Positions 1 to 25,454 of a stretch of 29,218 nt of DNA are shown here, piece by piece. The notes below the pieces were generated by a model. The model saw nothing but the letters and a program-made list of their open reading frames with translations. It ran no database searches and had not been told where the DNA came from. Source of the DNA: a virus. A program made the position numbers and the translations under genes. Within the stretch, counting starts at the first letter, position 1, and every line of letters starts with the position of its first letter. The stretch lies in UHGV virus genome UHGV-0177389. One strand, 5' to 3'.

Positions 1-34
1 GACTATTGTATTACATGTAATCATTAAAAACCTA

Positions 35-349
35 ATGACAGTAAATAAAAATACAGACTTCAACGATAAAAATACAATACATCACAACAACAGCAAAACA
101 TTAATTTCTTATAGTAGCAACATCTATACGGATAAATACCTAAAATACATATCAGAAGATACAATAAAAGAAACCCGCGAAAAGTTAAAAAACATATATT
201 GTGCATCCGGCAGTTTTCACAAATTATCGCCGCAAGAGCGTTTATTCTACGAAGCAAGAAAACAACGTAAGTCAATAATATTACATTATTATGCTGATTC
301 AGGGGAGACACTCATATTTAATATTGGGGTTTCCCCTGAATCATGCTAA
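35..349 (+). CDS. hypothetical protein (104 aa), AT-rich moron-like ORF convergent with the virion gene
   Basis: ORF track 35..349 with ATG start; positions 1-360 are markedly AT-rich compared with the rest of the window; no recognisable motif. Confidence 0.35.
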   Translation: MTVNKNTDFNDKNTIHHNNSKTLISYSSNIYTDKYLKYISEDTIKETREKLKNIYCASGSFHKLSPQERLFYEARKQRKSIILHYYADSGETLIFNIGVSPESC

Positions 350-360
350 AGGTGTTTAAC

Positions 361-3300
361 TCACCGCATCACCGGATCCACCTGGTTTATTAGTGGCGCA
401 ATCCAGAACAGGTTATTGCCGGGTATCAGGGTTCGGACATTATGCACAATACGATCACCGGCATCACCATTCAACACTCCTGCGGTCACATCAATGATGC
501 TATCCGCAAGACCAAATGACGGTCCGAATAGAGATCCTACGAATCCACGACTGGCATACCTAGACTGTGTGCCAGTGCCAAATAAAGCCCCCAGCCCAAC
601 AGCACCACCAGTAGCCTTTTCAGCCATATTGTTATATTCCATCAATGGCCCAAGAATACCGGATCTATCTATACCCTCAAGCACCAGCTTCTCTGGTGAC
701 CAGTCAACATTTTTCCCTTTCGATGCTTCTTTAAGCGCATAGACCAGTGAGCCAAGAGCAATCTGAAATGCAGTGCCATAATAAAATTGCGCAGTTCCTT
801 CCTGTAACCCACCAAGTAGCGCACGGTTGTATGAAGCCGTTGTGAATGATTTAAACTGAAATATCGTTCGCCCCATTGGAGTACTCGCCCATAAAGGTGT
901 GTCACCAATACCGGGGGTAATGATAGTGTTATTAACGTCTTTCAGAACCGCTGACTGGAATACTCCGGCAACGTACTGATCGTCCCATTTATCAAAGTTA
1001 CCAATGTGCCATCCATCAATTACCTCACCATGTTTCTCGAACTCACTGCGAATACGCGCAGCCATATTGTCGTTGATACCGAGTTTTGCCATGCGACGTG
1101 CAGAAAACGCACCAGACAAAATACCGTCTGACGTGAGCATTCCGTTCATGGATTTGTTTATGTCATTAAATCGATCCATGAGTGTCAGCTTGCCGAAGGC
1201 ATCAGTAATTCGCTCCATTCCTGCTTCGACTGCTGTTGTCCTGGAAGAACTGTCAACAAGATCACCAATTGCACGAGAACGTGAATGTAGTACAGTTTCC
1301 AATCCAATCCCCATCTTCAACATCTCTTCTTTGCTGGCCTTAAATGCCGGTGATTGGGATATCTGAGAAGCATAGCCTTTCATGGAGTTACGGAAACCAT
1401 TAACCATAACCCCTCTGGCCAGATCTGGAATAGCTGATACTGTCATTCCACCGAGTTTTGTCGTGAAGTTCACATCCCGCAGAAAAGCGCCAGCACGAAC
1501 AAAAAACGAAGACGGGTCATCAGGCATACCATATGTACCAACAAGACGATCGCGTAATGCTGTTATGTCTCTGAGATCATTTGCTCTTGATTTTGAAAGT
1601 CTGGACTGTTCTTTCCGTAATTCCTTTTCGTACTTTCGCATTAATGAATCGAGTTTACCCTGAGGAACAACTTCACCATTGCTCTCATAACGTGCTTTCA
1701 GATTTGCCACACTTTCGTCATATTTTGCCTTTATTTTTTCAGGCACTTCCCGTAACAGACTGTCATATTCGTCCTCAATTAATTGCAGACGCTCTGTCAT
1801 AGTTCGTTTGCCAAATGTTCTCGTCAACTCAATTTCTGCTGCCGCTTCACGGATATGACGTTGTAGAACGTAATTCACATCACTTTCGAGATAATCCCTG
1901 ATAAGACTATCAGGCACATTTAATGTTCTTTCTTTCGTACTACCTGCGGCTTTTACAGAAAATACGCTGACAAAATCCTGTGGAACCTTAGCACCAGTAA
2001 TTTTATTAATTACGATATCCGCTGCAATTTCAGCATCCTCAGGATCCAGTGTTTTATTGCCTCTCGACCACCAGTCAACCAAAATACGTCGAAATTTATC
2101 GCGTTCACTGATTATTTTTCCAACTTTATATATACGTGGGAAATAGCTTGCCTGGCCTAATGCTTTCAGTTCTTCATCTGGCGGCAATAAACCAAGCTTT
2201 TGCATTTCAACCTTCACCCGATTTAATACAGTTCGCATCGCCTGCGCCGTTTCCTGAACAACAGGATTAGCATGCACATCACCGCTTCGCATAGCATTCC
2301 CAACCTGCTGACGAAATGAATCAAAACTCATGTCACCACCATCAGCTTTATACTTTGCGTATGCCTGTTTATTTCCGACAACAACAGCAGCTTCTTCACG
2401 CTGCCATCCACGTGTACGGGTTTCTACAGCTACCGGTGTTTCAATCCCCCTTTCATTTCCTTTAAGGGTGAAATTATTTTCGGCTAACTCCAGCGTTGTT
2501 TTTCGCACTGTCTTGGACGGAGACTCCATTAACCTTGTCAAAGGAGTAAGATAGCTCCCTGCTTTCCATGCAGCCTTTCCAACCACCCCACCGGAAACAG
2601 GGGTTAAATCATCCAGAGTCGCTGTATCAATTTTCATAGCACCAACACTACCACCATCAGAAAGCGAAGCGGCAGCCCTGTCAGTCGCTGATGTAATGCT
2701 CATATTATCAAGAGCATCAGCAACCTCACGCGTGGCTGCAGCCCGGACGGATGGCGAAAGCGCAACACCAGCACTGGCAAACACGCCGCTCATCATCGCA
2801 CCCGCTGCAATGTGAGCGGCACTTTCACCCCATGAGCGTGTTATTTGCTGATTATTCAGCACAACCTCGCTTAATGCTGTACCGGCTGCACCAATCGCAA
2901 TCTGTGAGCCAATACGCGCCAGTGCCCCTCCTTGAGCACCGGGGATAAACATTGACGCAACAGTAACCGGATCCATTCCCGCAGCAATACTGGCAAGGGT
3001 TCCAACTACGCCAGCATCAGACAATAAACGTCTGTCTTCATTTTCATCATCTATCTGCTGCTTAATCCACGCCGTTTCCTCTGGCGATCGGGAATCTGCA
3101 AATTTCGCCCCCCAGTATTCATAACCGTGCAACTCATTTTTATCAGCATATGGGTTATAACCTTCGACCGGTTCAAACTGTCTGGCTGGTCGGAAAAAAC
3201 CAGCCAGAATATTGTTCTGTCGCATTGCAGCCCCCCATACGGAAGGCTCCGGTGGCAATGGCTCAGGATTAGCCCCTTCCGGAAGGGCAACATCAAACCC

Positions 3301-3375
3301 AGTTTGTTCCGGCAAAACATTACCTGACGGGATCAGTCCGTTATTAAGATCTTCAGCTTGTGCATAAACTGGCAT
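361..3375 (-). CDS. large internal virion / DNA-ejection protein (1004 aa), T7 gp16-like by position
   Basis: ORF track; ATG at 3375 overlaps the stop of the upstream gene; last and largest gene of the tail/core module; Gly/Ala-rich segments. Confidence 0.55.
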   Translation of the reverse strand: MPVYAQAEDLNNGLIPSGNVLPEQTGFDVALPEGANPEPLPPEPSVWGAAMRQNNILAGFFRPARQFEPVEGYNPYADKNELHGYEYWGAKFADSRSPEETAWIKQQIDDENEDRRLLSDAGVVGTLASIAAGMDPVTVASMFIPGAQGGALARIGSQIAIGAAGTALSEVVLNNQQITRSWGESAAHIAAGAMMSGVFASAGVALSPSVRAAATREVADALDNMSITSATDRAAASLSDGGSVGAMKIDTATLDDLTPVSGGVVGKAAWKAGSYLTPLTRLMESPSKTVRKTTLELAENNFTLKGNERGIETPVAVETRTRGWQREEAAVVVGNKQAYAKYKADGGDMSFDSFRQQVGNAMRSGDVHANPVVQETAQAMRTVLNRVKVEMQKLGLLPPDEELKALGQASYFPRIYKVGKIISERDKFRRILVDWWSRGNKTLDPEDAEIAADIVINKITGAKVPQDFVSVFSVKAAGSTKERTLNVPDSLIRDYLESDVNYVLQRHIREAAAEIELTRTFGKRTMTERLQLIEDEYDSLLREVPEKIKAKYDESVANLKARYESNGEVVPQGKLDSLMRKYEKELRKEQSRLSKSRANDLRDITALRDRLVGTYGMPDDPSSFFVRAGAFLRDVNFTTKLGGMTVSAIPDLARGVMVNGFRNSMKGYASQISQSPAFKASKEEMLKMGIGLETVLHSRSRAIGDLVDSSSRTTAVEAGMERITDAFGKLTLMDRFNDINKSMNGMLTSDGILSGAFSARRMAKLGINDNMAARIRSEFEKHGEVIDGWHIGNFDKWDDQYVAGVFQSAVLKDVNNTIITPGIGDTPLWASTPMGRTIFQFKSFTTASYNRALLGGLQEGTAQFYYGTAFQIALGSLVYALKEASKGKNVDWSPEKLVLEGIDRSGILGPLMEYNNMAEKATGGAVGLGALFGTGTQSRYASRGFVGSLFGPSFGLADSIIDVTAGVLNGDAGDRIVHNVRTLIPGNNLFWIAPLINQVDPVMR

Positions 3376-6092
3376 TATTTAGATCCCCACGAAAAGTAAT
3401 CTTTAAATTTGTCCATACGTTCGTTATGCAGGCGCTGATACTGCTCATCCAGAGCGCGATGCTTGTCTTTGAAGTTTCGTATAGCCTGTCCACGCATAAT
3501 TTCTTCCTGCTCGTACTGCTCCCGTTCCTGCTGCATTTTCTTATAAGGTTCCCAATCTTCTAGTGATGGTTCCCAACGCATAGGACGCCCATGTTTGTTA
3601 TAAAACGGCTGGACCCGATCGATGCCATTTTCATCCTTAGTTCTTACCATAATGGCGTAATCACCATTACGAGGTGTTAACACGTCAGGGGTTATGAATA
3701 ATTCTCCATTAATACGACTCTCAGGGGTTTTTGTCTCAACTACAGGAGCATTACCTGACGTGATCCCAAGCAACGTCGGACTGGTTGTTATAATCTCTTT
3801 GCGCTCACCGTACATCAGCCGTTCTTTTTCAGCTTTCCACTGCGCCGCCTGCCAGCCTGACGGCCCATATTGATAAAGCGCCTCCGGTGCATATTTCATA
3901 AACTGCGCTTCTCCGTTAACCTCGCTGATACTCCAGGTGCGGGCTATCTGCTGGTTGGTCATTTGCTTCGCTACGTCAGCGTTACCACCAGCAACGCGGT
4001 AGTTAATGTCATACAGCGTCTGATAGTCATTACGGAATCTAGCTGCTTCCGGCGTCTGGTCATCCGCAGACGGATCCCAACGGAACCACTGCGCCATATT
4101 GCTGACAGCAGAATTCATCGCCTTGCTGCGATTATTTTTGTACTCTTTTGAACTCTGCGTTGATGCCAATTGAGCTTTAAGAGCATCGGTCTGGTTGTAC
4201 GTCAGGTTCTGCGCCTGCTCGATAGCCGCATCAGCAGACATGCCAGAATCTGTTAGTTGCTTAACAGTCAGATAAAAACCCTGCATATCCTTCGGCATAT
4301 TTCCAATAGATGCATTGTCTGTTTCATATAACCGACTAAACAAATTCGCTGCATTTTTAACCACTTCCTGATTGCTGGATCTGGATACTGCTGAAAGCTG
4401 CGTGATGACCTGCGAAGGCATGATGCCAGTCTGAGCCACAAGCCGAACAACCCCATCATGAGTGGAGGCATCATTAATACGAAAGTTCTGCGCCATTTCT
4501 GTGTAATCAGCAGCTTTCTGCATTGATTTGTTGCTTGGGTCTAATTTTTCACCTATTGTCAGCGCCTCATTGAATCTGCGTGAATCACGTTGCGCCTGAA
4601 TTGCTTCATTTGATCGCTGAAGCAATGCAGACAATTTTCCGTAAGCATCGAGTTTTAACGCATAGTGAGGATCGTTAACCTCAGGCTTCACTTTCTGCAT
4701 TTCTTCTTGCTGCTGAGAAGGAGGTAAATACTGAATTGCCTGGAATATTCTCGCGTTATCAATCGCTATATCCAGTTGATTGATTATTTTATCTGCATTT
4801 TTTCCATACCCCCTGATGATAGTCTCCTGAGCCGGTATATAATCTGGAACCTCACCGTTATATAGCTGGGCCATGGTGTTATTAATAGCTGGCTCAAGCT
4901 GTTCTAATATTAACTTCCTTTGCTTTTCTATCTGACTATTAGCAAGGTTATCTATTTGATAAATAGTCAGCGGATCCATTCCAGTTTTATTTTTTCTATA
5001 TCGGGAAAGCCACCCTTGTGTTTCTGATGGAAGATTTCGGATAAATTCTTCTTCTGATATTTCACCTTTACGTGGATCACCGACTTTGGCGATCAGTTTA
5101 TCCACGTTACCCATCCCCCAGTTATATGCTGCTCCGGTCAATATTTCGGAGCCGTACTTACCATACAGTTGATTTACATAGTCACTGGCGAGCATTTCAT
5201 GCTGTTGTTCGTCCGTAGGGTTGTATTTAACGCCACGCTTGGCCGCCAGTTCTTTCCCTGTGCCCGGCATTAACTGGTATTTCCCCTGGGCTCTCTCTCC
5301 AGAAGATGTTATCGGTCCTTCAAGAAGACTACCATCAGGATTAAAATGTCGATCACCTGATTCAACAAGGCGTATGGCACGCATGTCCATGCCTCCAGAA
5401 TCATTTTTCTGAAACAGACCATTTAGCCATCCTTCTGGATTGGCAGCGGCATAATTCTTCGCCCGCATTTCTGTGGCACGGCGATCATCACTTTCTATTT
5501 CTTCCAGAATGCGTTCTTGTGACCATCCCCTGGCAGCTCCATATCTGGCAATGGCTACCATTCTGGAATTTCTGGCTAAAGTGGCAGTTTGCGGGTCATT
5601 CCAGGCATCCGCTTCATTTTGTATCCATAATTTTCTCGTTGCCTGATATTGCTCATCTTCATAGGCATTTGTCTGCCCTATCTCATGTCTGAGAACTCCA
5701 GTACTGAACTGAATTTTCTGTGTTCTGGCTTGTTGCAAAAACATATTTCTTGCTGCTTCATCAGTCAATGAAGCAGCTATTTCTTCCACATCCTGATCAA
5801 ATCCAGATATGTACTCTTGCCCCTTACCAATCGCATTTTTGCCTTGTTGTGCATAAAAACCGGTTTGAGGGTTATAAAGACGTTCATTGCTGCGCTGATT
5901 AAGCTGAAGGATGGCATCCTGAGACAATGCAACATTCGCTTTCTGCCTGGCTTCACCATATGCCACCGCATACTGATCTGCGACATTCGCCAGCACCTGA
6001 CCTGCTTGAGGAACATCGAAGGTCTGAAAACCACCGGTTTGCACACCACGACTTTGCACCTGGCGTCCGGATACTGTTGGTACGACTGGCAT
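3375..6092 (-). CDS. internal virion protein with soluble lytic transglycosylase (SLT) domain
   Basis: ORF track 3375..6167 trimmed to ATG at 6092, which has GGAGGA 5 nt upstream and overlaps the upstream stop; SLT-like motifs ES...GKYQLM...AAYNWG. Confidence 0.7.
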   Translation of the reverse strand: MPVVPTVSGRQVQSRGVQTGGFQTFDVPQAGQVLANVADQYAVAYGEARQKANVALSQDAILQLNQRSNERLYNPQTGFYAQQGKNAIGKGQEYISGFDQDVEEIAASLTDEAARNMFLQQARTQKIQFSTGVLRHEIGQTNAYEDEQYQATRKLWIQNEADAWNDPQTATLARNSRMVAIARYGAARGWSQERILEEIESDDRRATEMRAKNYAAANPEGWLNGLFQKNDSGGMDMRAIRLVESGDRHFNPDGSLLEGPITSSGERAQGKYQLMPGTGKELAAKRGVKYNPTDEQQHEMLASDYVNQLYGKYGSEILTGAAYNWGMGNVDKLIAKVGDPRKGEISEEEFIRNLPSETQGWLSRYRKNKTGMDPLTIYQIDNLANSQIEKQRKLILEQLEPAINNTMAQLYNGEVPDYIPAQETIIRGYGKNADKIINQLDIAIDNARIFQAIQYLPPSQQQEEMQKVKPEVNDPHYALKLDAYGKLSALLQRSNEAIQAQRDSRRFNEALTIGEKLDPSNKSMQKAADYTEMAQNFRINDASTHDGVVRLVAQTGIMPSQVITQLSAVSRSSNQEVVKNAANLFSRLYETDNASIGNMPKDMQGFYLTVKQLTDSGMSADAAIEQAQNLTYNQTDALKAQLASTQSSKEYKNNRSKAMNSAVSNMAQWFRWDPSADDQTPEAARFRNDYQTLYDINYRVAGGNADVAKQMTNQQIARTWSISEVNGEAQFMKYAPEALYQYGPSGWQAAQWKAEKERLMYGERKEIITTSPTLLGITSGNAPVVETKTPESRINGELFITPDVLTPRNGDYAIMVRTKDENGIDRVQPFYNKHGRPMRWEPSLEDWEPYKKMQQEREQYEQEEIMRGQAIRNFKDKHRALDEQYQRLHNERMDKFKDYFSWGSK

Positions 6093-6637
6093 TATAATCC
6101 TCCGGGTAATCTGGTTCCTGCTGCTGCCCCGATTGGCGCAGGGGTGCTTTGAGTAAACGGACTCCACGTCCCACCAAACATCTGGTACGCACCGTATGCC
6201 TTCAGAGGCGCAGTGAGCAATGTTGTTGCTGATCCCACATTCCCCTGTTTACGGGCTGAACTGGCTTCTGCTTTATAGTTGGCAGCCTGAACCTGATAAC
6301 CGTAAGCCTCGCGTTGCGCGTTATTCACCGTCGTCAGAGAATCAAGAGCGCCAAACTGGGCAGTGTCGCCAAATATATCCAGCGCGTTACCTGTAGATAA
6401 ATCAGCGCCGGTAGCCCCCATTGTCGCCGCCTGTGTACCAAGCCGCTGTCGGGTCTCTCTGCGCCGTTGCTCAGCTTCAGCGTTACCTCTGTTTATTGCA
6501 TCATTTGCCTGAGCAGTGGCTATATCTGCGTTCGCTTCTGCAACCTTCGAGGCATACTTTCCCTGTTGGTACTGGGTGTATGCCTGAATGCCACTCATGG
6601 CGAGCATTGCGCCACCAGCAATAACCGGATCGCACAT
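6092..6637 (-). CDS. internal core protein (181 aa), T7 gp14-like by position
   Basis: ORF track; ATG overlaps upstream stop; GGAGAG upstream; Ala/Gln-rich small protein between tail and large core genes. Confidence 0.45.
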   Translation of the reverse strand: MCDPVIAGGAMLAMSGIQAYTQYQQGKYASKVAEANADIATAQANDAINRGNAEAEQRRRETRQRLGTQAATMGATGADLSTGNALDIFGDTAQFGALDSLTTVNNAQREAYGYQVQAANYKAEASSARKQGNVGSATTLLTAPLKAYGAYQMFGGTWSPFTQSTPAPIGAAAGTRLPGGL

Positions 6638-13084: not shown

Positions 13085-13381
13085 TCACTCCTGTTCACTG
13101 GCCTCTTTGGCCATCTTCAAATACTGTTCAGGGCAATGCGCCATAACGCGCTGAAACAGTTCCAGCGCCAGATTGCGTTGCCCCTCATTAAATGCCATTG
13201 CCATAGCGTCCATCGGTGAGATAGCGGAAAACACACGGCCTTTCTCCAGCACCGACCAGACAACGCGACGCCCCTGTTCACTGCTCATGACAAAGCGAAT
13301 GTCATCAATTTCACGCTGCGCCATGTCACGTTGCTTACGGGCGTTTTCTTCTTTCAGTTGATCGTCTTCGTAATCTGTCAT
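13085..13381 (-). CDS. hypothetical protein (98 aa)
   Basis: ORF track; ATGA overlap with the portal stop. Confidence 0.45.
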   Translation of the reverse strand: MTDYEDDQLKEENARKQRDMAQREIDDIRFVMSSEQGRRVVWSVLEKGRVFSAISPMDAMAMAFNEGQRNLALELFQRVMAHCPEQYLKMAKEASEQE

Positions 13382-15705: not shown

Positions 15706-15782
15706 GTGGCATTAGCTCAGTTGGACAGAGCAACCGCCTTCTAAGCGGTTGGTCGCAGGTTCGAATCCTGCATGCCACGCCA
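15706..15782 (+). tRNA. tRNA-Arg (anticodon UCU)
   Basis: Manual cloverleaf: 7-bp acceptor stem GTGGCAT/ATGCCAC, D arm GCTC...GAGC, anticodon stem ACCGC/GCGGT with loop CTTCTAA (anticodon TCT), T arm GCAGG-TTCGAAT-CCTGC, encoded CCA. Confidence 0.9.
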
Positions 15783-24484: not shown

Positions 24485-24715
24485 TCATGAGTAGAAGAAG
24501 TATGCCAGTTCTGCTTTTGAGCGCAGCCATTGTCTTGTTTTACAGGCTTTAAAAAGCCCATTCATCAATACTTTACCTGGCATTTTGCGCTTACCTGTTA
24601 AGTGAGTCTGGATATAGTGACTCGTCGTTCCGGCTTCCTGTGCGAAGGCTTCACGCTCATCCGGAGTAAGTGCAAGCCAGTGCTTTTTGAAATCGAAATG
24701 TCCGTTATCGCTCAT
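24485..24715 (-). CDS. Cro-like HTH DNA-binding protein (76 aa)
   Basis: ORF track; divergent from the repressor gene across an operator-containing intergenic region; HTH-like segment AGTTSHYIQTHLTGKR. Confidence 0.55.
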   Translation of the reverse strand: MSDNGHFDFKKHWLALTPDEREAFAQEAGTTSHYIQTHLTGKRKMPGKVLMNGLFKACKTRQWLRSKAELAYFFYS

Positions 24716-24751
24716 AGCTATTGCCTGATATTTATTTCAGATAATAAATAT

Positions 24752-24814
24752 TCACCCATAAGGTAACAAAAATCAAGGATAGTTACCCATGAGGTGCATT
24801 TACCTGTTGGGTAA
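24752..24814. promoter_or_regulatory. right operator region: three TTACC-N5-GGTAA-type sites plus cro-like promoter
   Basis: Sites at 24752-24766 (TCACC-CATAA-GGTAA), 24783-24797 (TTACC-CATGA-GGTGC) and 24800-24814 (perfect); minus-strand -35 TTGATT (24771-24776) and -10 GAATAT (24748-24753), 17-nt spacer. Confidence 0.55.
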
Positions 24815-24869
24815 TATTGCTTTAAATTGAATCATCTACTGATTCATATATGAGGCGATTTTCCAGAAA

Positions 24870-25454
24870 ATGAAAAGTATCCAGGACGTCCGCAGGCAAA
24901 ATCTCAACGACTTGATCGACCGTGAATTCAATGGTGTTCAGACGCGGATGGCTGAAAAACTTGGAACTCAGGCAAATCTGGTAAACCGCTGGGCTCTTGG
25001 TAAGAAGGTTATCGGCGATCAGGTTGCGCGAAAAATTGAAGCTGCCGCCAATAAACCCCGTAACTGGCTTGATATCGATCGCTCGCTTTCTCAGGAAGGT
25101 TTTCAGCCTGTCGGCCCAAGCGACATTGGCCAGCTGGCGGCTCACAACCTGGAACGCTGGATGAGCGAAAGCCGCGACCTTTCAACACAGGGAAAACTTC
25201 ACCGCGCATCCGGCGTAGCCCAGGTGACAATCAGCCGCCTGTTAAACAATGAGGTCAGCGTTTCCATTTCCACCCTGGAGAATGTTGCATCCGCATTCGG
25301 GCGTCACGGCTATGAATTACTGATTCACCCGCACGACCCTGCGACCATCAACTATGATCGCTCGCGCTACGCATTGTTACCCGAAACCGAGAAAGCAAAG
25401 ATCGAAAGTTACATTGAATTTGTCATCAACCAGAACGAAAAAAACAAACAATAA
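24870..25454 (+). CDS. prophage repressor (194 aa) with two predicted HTH segments and no recognisable S24 peptidase domain
   Basis: ORF track; HTH-like TRMAEKLGTQANLVNRW and ASGVAQVTISRLLNNE; divergent from the cro-like gene; operators on both sides. Confidence 0.6.
   Translation: MKSIQDVRRQNLNDLIDREFNGVQTRMAEKLGTQANLVNRWALGKKVIGDQVARKIEAAANKPRNWLDIDRSLSQEGFQPVGPSDIGQLAAHNLERWMSESRDLSTQGKLHRASGVAQVTISRLLNNEVSVSISTLENVASAFGRHGYELLIHPHDPATINYDRSRYALLPETEKAKIESYIEFVINQNEKNKQ

Follow-up and report, generated by a model that had tools for sequence, protein, structure and literature searches.

Genes and base composition at the left end of the window

We analyzed a stretch of 29,218 nucleotides, referred to here as the window, that by its sequence is an epsilon15-like prophage of Escherichia coli, i.e. 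a temperate podophage. Its bases 1–3400 are 99.9% identical to prophages of complete E. coli genomes and 99.3% identical to Escherichia phage TL-2011b (NC_019445). The left end of the window holds the 3′ end of a gene that we call X. X converges on the last gene of the virion module, which encodes an internal virion (ejection) protein and is followed rightward by the genes for an SLT-domain internal virion protein, for a core protein of the T7 gp14 family and then for tail, capsid and portal proteins. The PHROG matched by the last virion protein is annotated as 'internal virion protein with endolysin domain'. The features are listed in Table 1, where positions outside the window refer to other copies of the locus, above all those of TL-2011b (L001) and of FDAARGOS_1300 (L002); window bases 1–349 are identical to the latter copy.

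Table 1. Coordinates of the features at the X locus and in the remainder of the window, with the loci at which genes of the X family were found.
Feature	Sequence	Position	Strand	Remarks
Gene X, 3′ part	window	1..349	+	349 nt; residues 73–187 and stop of a 564-nt, 187-codon gene
Gene X, full length	L002	13786..14349	+	equals window −214..349
Gene X, full length	L001	11786..12349		
Spacer between X and the 1004-aa gene	window	350..360		11 nt between stop codons, convergent genes
1004-aa internal virion (ejection) protein	window	361..3375	-	last virion-module gene; phrog_342, E 1e-209
45-bp junction	window	367..411		final 15 codons of the 1004-aa gene; conserved right border of the swappable slot
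Weak terminator-like hairpin	window	371..386	+	within the 45-bp junction
930-aa internal virion protein, SLT lytic transglycosylase domain	window	3375..6167	-	Pfam SLT E 4e-7; phrog_1044
Secondary low-GC patch	window	4725..5073		36.7% GC; within the SLT-domain internal virion gene
tRNA-Arg	window	15706..15782	+	anticodon TCT, rare AGA codon; between the portal/small-gene end and the terminase genes
Secondary low-GC patch	window	24531..24879		38.4% GC; in the early region
sar antisense RNA	L002	12905..12972	+	Rfam 44.8 bits against a gathering score of 43; between arc-like gene and ant; about 1.1 kb left of the window
mnt-like gene	L002	13264..13695	+	143 aa; directly upstream of X, same strand
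E. coli type locus	L001, L002			
Locus of the 48%-identical relative	L003			
Serratia fonticola locus	L008			
Providencia loci	L010, L011			two prophages
Proteus locus	L012			
Metagenome locus	L013			
Proteus cibi locus	L020			

The GC content of window 1–349 is 30.9%, compared with a mean of 49.4% (sd 4.0) for all 349-nt windows of the 29,218 nt. This value lies about 4.6 sd below the mean and is the minimum of the whole window, the second-lowest non-overlapping 349-nt stretch having 36.7%, and the change is abrupt, with GC back at 0.49 by bases 301–600. The drop in the first 360 nt that had been pointed out in a preliminary description of this DNA is thus real. When viewed more widely, it persists as an AT-rich patch of about 1.05 kb in total, with a GC of 0.29–0.33 from about position 13300 to 14350 of L002, as compared to 0.42–0.48 further left. 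The patch spans gene X and the 3′ two-thirds of the upstream mnt-like gene. As the C-terminal extension of the latter is itself AT-rich (29.8% GC), the patch begins inside the mnt-like gene and not at a gene boundary. The same description had expected an island that continues past the window. It does so leftward, for about 0.85 kb, but at this short total length it is no large cargo island.

X is a real and conserved gene

The + strand ORF that stops at 349 had been taken to encode 104 aa, a size that proved to be an artefact of the window edge. The reading frame stays open as far as the window edge, at base 2, the ATG at window position 35 is the internal Met84 of X, and in identical or near-identical public copies the gene starts with a TTG codon, 7 nt past an AAGGAG and 215 nt left of the window. 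It is in these first 215 nt that the N-terminal membrane anchor is encoded. This should be considered whenever an ORF is met at the edge of a window, as the edge can conceal the most informative part of the gene, as it did here with the anchor.

X is a real, conserved gene. All 36 complete E. coli genomes with the gene have it annotated as an intact CDS, and an identical protein is encoded on 767 contigs of E. coli, E. albertii and E. marmotae, always under the name 'hypothetical'. Its conservation is also evident from more distant relatives in other bacteria, which are described below. Among the carriers are pathogenic E. coli lineages (STEC O103, ETEC, APEC and K1 strains). The pN/pS values among the E. 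coli alleles (0.26–1.3) are uninformative, as they were obtained from very few differences. Upstream of X there are two promoter-like sites; promoter-like matches numbered 4, while 6.6 were expected in shuffled sequence, and the consensus scan for promoters and terminators around X gave matches no commoner than in shuffled sequence.

The gene has the public names F365_gp39 (in phage TL-2011b), WP_000849599.1 and phrog_8033, the match to the latter having an E-value of 1e-128. This is a PHROG of unknown function, and all database entries for X and its relatives read 'hypothetical protein'. No usable family match was obtained in Pfam, NCBIfam or PADLOC, with DUF3836 reaching only E 0.46. A literature search by accession, phrog_8033, TL-2011b and epsilon15 exclusion found no study of X.

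The junction with the virion module and the swappable slot

As had been described before, X and the 1004-aa virion gene are convergent and about 11 nt apart: their stops lie at 349 and 361, with 11 nt in between. This spacer leaves no room for an intergenic terminator. At the homologous Providencia and Proteus loci the spacer is 29–30 nt long and holds a clear GC hairpin. These hairpins (L010 7493–7521 and L012 7493–7522) are strong and GC-rich, e.g. GAGCCGAT-AAAC-ATCGGCTC. They are likely bidirectional terminators, whereas the E. coli locus, with just 11 nt, is without such a hairpin.

X is not found in every prophage of this kind. Among the 44 complete E. coli genomes with the 1004-aa gene, 36 have the mnt-like gene together with X. 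The approximately eight E. coli prophages that are without X keep the same ejection genes, with 95.5–99.7% identity over the 3′ 1.2 kb tested, and homology is lost exactly where the 1004-aa gene has its stop codon. Other genes were found to take this place: WP_000451652.1, a protein of 175 aa with one N-terminal transmembrane helix, and WP_001555166.1, a 98-aa two-helix hairpin (two transmembrane segments), both from E. coli prophages, as well as gp18 of epsilon15, with 64 aa, two hydrophobic helices and a GC content of 40.5% against 50.8% for the genome. They resemble X in occupying the same slot, in being small, in having a GC content under that of their flanks and in being predicted membrane proteins, while in sequence they are unrelated to it. 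Each occupant belongs to a PHROG of its own (phrog_21690, phrog_21905 and phrog_29212, respectively, compared with phrog_8033 for X), and two of these three genes lie on the virion-gene strand.

The slot after the last ejection gene is thus swappable, holding unrelated small membrane-protein genes in different prophages. The proposal that an accessory region has its edge at the end of the virion module was borne out by the homology break at the stop of the 1004-aa gene and by the three unrelated slot genes. X also presents two features of morons, namely a shift in composition (32% GC against 47%) and presence or absence between near-identical phages.

The 45 bp at the right border of the slot were also found elsewhere. 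Copies with 100% identity occur in about 36 other E. coli genomes, there as non-coding DNA, located between the 98-aa moron WP_001555166.1 and the virion genes (DUF919 protein) of another prophage type. This copy looks like a recombination scar, and the moron would then have travelled with its junction.

A P22-type immI region lies to the left of X

In an alignment with the whole of P22 Mnt (83 residues), residues 1–86 of the mnt-like protein show 32% identity (E 3e-14), and the protein matches Pfam Arc at 1e-14. It additionally has a C-terminal extension of approximately 60 residues, for which no family match was found. Genes for a homologue of Arc (E 4e-5) and for an antirepressor, Ant (38% identity, E 6e-35), run divergently from the mnt-like gene, with the sar antisense RNA between the two. 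In the divergent promoter region there is a perfect palindrome, GCCCCAC-C-GTGGGGC, at L002 13160–13175, along with CACCGTG/CACGGTG repeats; these palindromes look like operators. All components that define immI were therefore found, i.e. the mnt and arc ribbon-helix-helix repressors, divergent promoters, sar and ant, and the region left of X is a true and complete P22-type immI outside the P22-like phages.

In the deposited TL-2011b record, codon 9 of the mnt-like gene contains one extra G (L001 ~11288 compared with L002 13288; CTAAGGGATC vs CTAAGGATC). This G shifts the reading frame, so that the record annotates just a 113-aa product without the ribbon-helix-helix strand. Either the extra base is an error of sequencing, or mnt is truly defective in this phage, which would derepress Ant and favour induction.

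Further left of immI there are small variable genes, followed by a tailspike gene, lysis genes and an integrase. The tailspike and lysis genes that had been anticipated in this direction are hence both present, and the integrase was found in addition. The variable small genes between immI and the spike include a YafO-family toxin (in some copies), BRO-N, DUF2335 and ORF6N. The receptor modules differ between the near-identical prophages (L002 6414–9533 vs L001 3216–6486): the FDAARGOS_1300 tailspike is an endosialidase of the K1-capsule type, while TL-2011b has a different spike and an O-acetyltransferase.

Relatives of X and their genomic position

An exhaustive HMMER search of 1.84 billion representatives yielded 18 relatives of X, and a profile search of 5.8 billion sequences yielded 14. 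The relatives are 26–48% identical to X and come from E. coli, Serratia fonticola, Providencia, Proteus and metagenomes. A scan of species-representative genomes with a narrower family alignment added one further locus only, that of Proteus cibi, and among 50,697 phage records a tblastn search with three diverged members (E ≤ 0.01 to 0.1) found the family in TL-2011b only. By these searches, the X family is tiny and confined to a few Enterobacterales prophages. Common to the relatives are the motifs LSG..A.FF..Y.[IV]P, YC and YYD..G..L.F.[IV]G..P..C, and two cysteines are invariant across the family. It should be noted that the database ORF calls P0013 and P0017 read on into the antisense of the last virion gene.

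The position of the gene is the same throughout. At eight of eight distinct loci, the X-family gene and the virion genes are on opposite strands, and the former converges on the last virion gene (936–1133 aa), with a gap of 6–30 nt. At each locus examined, the GC content of the X-family gene is 7–19 points under that of its flank. X is, in view of this arrangement, a positionally conserved gene of this phage lineage in four genera and not a sporadic insertion.

Membrane topology and predicted fold of X

The sole hydrophobic segment of X covers residues ~3–27 and reads K2-TISILKVALGVAIILTLSILFYFY-HK. A hydropathy scan gave a single N-terminal hydrophobic segment in every full-length family member scanned; in the N-terminally short members P0020 and P0027, no hydrophobic segment rose above the threshold. 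Some relatives of X have a typical cleavable signal peptide, e.g. MKKTLLILLLSSPLATFA-ATD, whereas others, X included, have a longer anchor-like helix. By the positive-inside rule, the basic N-terminus followed by a hydrophobic helix indicates that the domain of about 160 residues after the anchor should face the periplasm. The two invariant cysteines of X (C139 and C187) fit such an oxidising compartment, and we infer a disulfide.

Two AlphaFold2 models of X were obtained. The first, with 2 sequences in the alignment, had a mean pLDDT of 59. The second, with 11 sequences, had a mean pLDDT of 78.6, with most core blocks at 85–96; residues 87–104, a subfamily-specific insertion, are disordered in it. 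The predicted alpha/beta fold is closest, by a moderate match, to PA3611 (PDB 3NPD) and to the pilotin AspS (PDB 4FTF), although one should take into consideration that this match involves only 9–15% identity and a small, common alpha/beta arrangement.

In AspS, three strands come after alpha1, and alpha2 and alpha3 are followed by two more strands and by alpha4; a conserved disulfide, which PA3611 has as well, connects alpha2 with alpha4, and both proteins are periplasmic (PMC3542185). The model of X likewise presents a helix, a beta hairpin, two helices, two strands and a C-terminal turn. One of its invariant cysteines is predicted to end alpha2 and the other lies at the C-terminus, positions that are topologically equivalent to those of the AspS/PA3611 disulfide and of the cysteines of YghG. 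Unlike AspS, X is without a lipobox and has no Cys in its N-terminal segment, and the E. coli subfamily has about 29 extra residues after the hairpin. The genomic context differs as well, as X is always found among phage genes and never in a T2SS operon, while yghG lies in a gsp cluster.

At the sequence level, neither X nor 10 of its relatives matched PF16549 (T2SSS_2) at E ≤ 1, whereas YghG matched at 1e-16. Comparison by hhalign of the X family with a 9-sequence AspS alignment gave an E-value of 0.29, the best local alignment being that of the equivalent beta hairpin, and comparison with YghG alone gave no significant relation. As there is no link at the sequence level, we regard X and AspS as having a predicted resemblance in fold and not as members of one family. 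A Foldseek search with X against the viral structures of BFVD gave no match at E ≤ 0.001.

Comparison with SieA and other exclusion proteins

In P22, gene 16 is followed by the convergent sieA, orf59a and mnt, then by arc, sar, ant and gene 9. X is in the exact position of sieA: on one side it converges on the last ejection gene, and on the other it is found beside mnt, downstream of it on the same strand, with the tailspike gene lying beyond. This is the position that characterizes the SieA family. Like X, P22 sieA is AT-rich (33.7% GC vs 47.4% for gene 16). Both proteins are small membrane proteins found in only some members of their phage group, and both families split into types of less than 30–50% identity within the same enterobacterial genera. 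For SieA, it was reported that the gene is present in only a third of P22-like phages, in three types with less than 30% identity and in much the same genera as X, and that mutations allowing escape map to the C-terminal parts of the ejection proteins gp16 and gp20 (Leavitt et al. 2024, PMC10883804).

The proteins themselves are different. No homology between X and SieA was found by BLASTP (E 0.25) or hhalign (probability 0.4%), and the SieA motif FxRYPxEAxxFNK is absent from X. The hydropathy scan shows one N-terminal segment in X and three hydrophobic regions in SieA; X would thus consist of this segment and a periplasmic domain, in contrast to the 3–4 transmembrane helices and conserved cytoplasmic motif of SieA. 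The phages that carry them also differ, being epsilon15-like with T7-like core proteins in the case of X and P22-like in the case of SieA. X is a positional analogue of SieA, not a homologue.

Several other small exclusion proteins block the entry of the genome after adsorption, namely Sp and Imm of T4, Sim of P1, the lactococcal Sie2009 and Ltp of TP-J34. In these phage- or prophage-encoded proteins, an extracytoplasmic domain is combined with an anchor, a signal or a lipid tail at the N-terminus, and a similar arrangement is predicted for X. Their targets and folds differ from those considered for X, and no homology to X was found in PHROGs, PADLOC or Pfam. The preliminary description had mentioned superinfection exclusion and surface modification as roles of genes at such loci. 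Our homology searches did connect X to relatives in enterobacterial prophages, but did not connect it to any known exclusion protein (BLASTP, hhalign, PADLOC, Pfam and NCBIfam).

Proposed function of X

From its place in the sieA slot, X would most likely block the entry of DNA from related phages. We tentatively propose, with a confidence that stays somewhat under an even chance, that X is a prophage-expressed, periplasm-facing exclusion protein that acts on the ejection-protein conduit of incoming epsilon15-like phages. The lysogen would produce X by way of the mnt-like transcript or from a promoter of the gene's own; that X is expressed there is suggested by its linkage to the mnt-like gene. 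It would reside in the inner membrane with its domain towards the periplasm, and would interfere with the trans-envelope conduit through which incoming phages of the same kind deliver their DNA and which their ejection proteins build, resulting in superinfection exclusion. The 930-aa SLT protein is a candidate target. The adjacency of X to the ejection genes should be read as an analogy and does not prove the function.

A more specific form of this proposal, which we consider unlikely though conceivable, is that X represents a new exclusion class. A tethered 'pilotin'-fold domain would capture the C-terminal segment of an incoming ejection protein, much as pilotins take the S-domain helix of a secretin, and would thereby stop conduit assembly in epsilon15-like and T7-core-type podophages. 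That X is always placed against the 3′ end of the last ejection gene would in this case mean that blocker and target are inherited together.

According to their annotations, epsilon15-like phages carry small membrane proteins that inhibit O-antigen enzymes of the host, and the O-acetyltransferase of TL-2011b is encoded a few kb from X. As X is also predicted to face the periplasm and is non-enzymatic in appearance, it could be a lysogenic-conversion factor that acts on the biogenesis of the host envelope, e.g. an inhibitor or modulator of O-antigen or capsule assembly. Such a protein would alter the receptors for many phages, or the fitness of the host. We regard this role as improbable, since in this lineage the conversion genes that are known are neighbours of the tailspike gene and not of the ejection genes. 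Moreover, X is kept beside wholly different tailspikes (the endosialidase in one prophage, and the TL-2011b spike with its O-acetyltransferase in the other) and occurs in four genera with different surface polysaccharides, which argues against a receptor-specific role.

The invariable linkage of X to the last ejection gene across genera would also fit a role in the lytic cycle of the phage itself. Llp of T5, for example, keeps progeny virions from wasting their DNA on infected or lysing cells. X might similarly spare the DNA of progeny from such cells, or might help the phage's own ejection proteins, and it would then be expressed during infection and not from the prophage. We find such a role quite improbable, as X lies opposite to the late-operon strand and, in E. 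coli, is joined to the mnt-like gene of lysogeny maintenance. In addition, about eight E. coli prophages with the same ejection genes do without X, and the tblastn search found it neither in epsilon15 nor in any other phage record apart from TL-2011b.

The resemblance to AspS and PA3611 raises the possibility that X is a pilotin-like binder of secretins, using an AspS/PA3611-like groove for the S-domain of the T2SS GspD or of a related protein and so modulating secretion. This reading is very unlikely. X has no sequence-level link to T2SSS_2, and in lacking a lipobox it could not reach the outer membrane by the sorting route of pilotins. Its gene has phage ejection genes beside it in every case and never those of a T2SS operon, and the fold match itself, at such low identity, is to a small arrangement that is common among alpha/beta proteins. 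The chance that X acts inside the cell in abortive infection, as a TIR effector like ThsB, which a PADLOC match to ThsB TIR-like proteins (E 0.005, residues 54–128) might suggest, is close to negligible, and we rejected this reading on fold and topology, since neither the TIR/flavodoxin-like fold nor the cytoplasmic location that define the Thoeris protein ThsB is predicted for X and the fold result effectively refutes it.

Implications

That a moron occupies a slot of a known type is no surprise to a phage biologist. What is new is that an unrelated podophage lineage also has the sieA slot together with the immI region next to it, and that the slot is filled there by a different, positionally conserved family with a domain predicted to be periplasmic and AspS/PA3611-like. 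If X does exclude incoming phages as we propose, temperate podophages in general would have a sieA slot, used by unrelated proteins in different lineages. Conduit assembly could in that case also be studied with the periplasmic domain of X, which would be soluble and should be easier to handle than the multi-pass SieA. In pathogenic E. coli, X could narrow the range of strains open to phages of this type that are used for typing or therapy.
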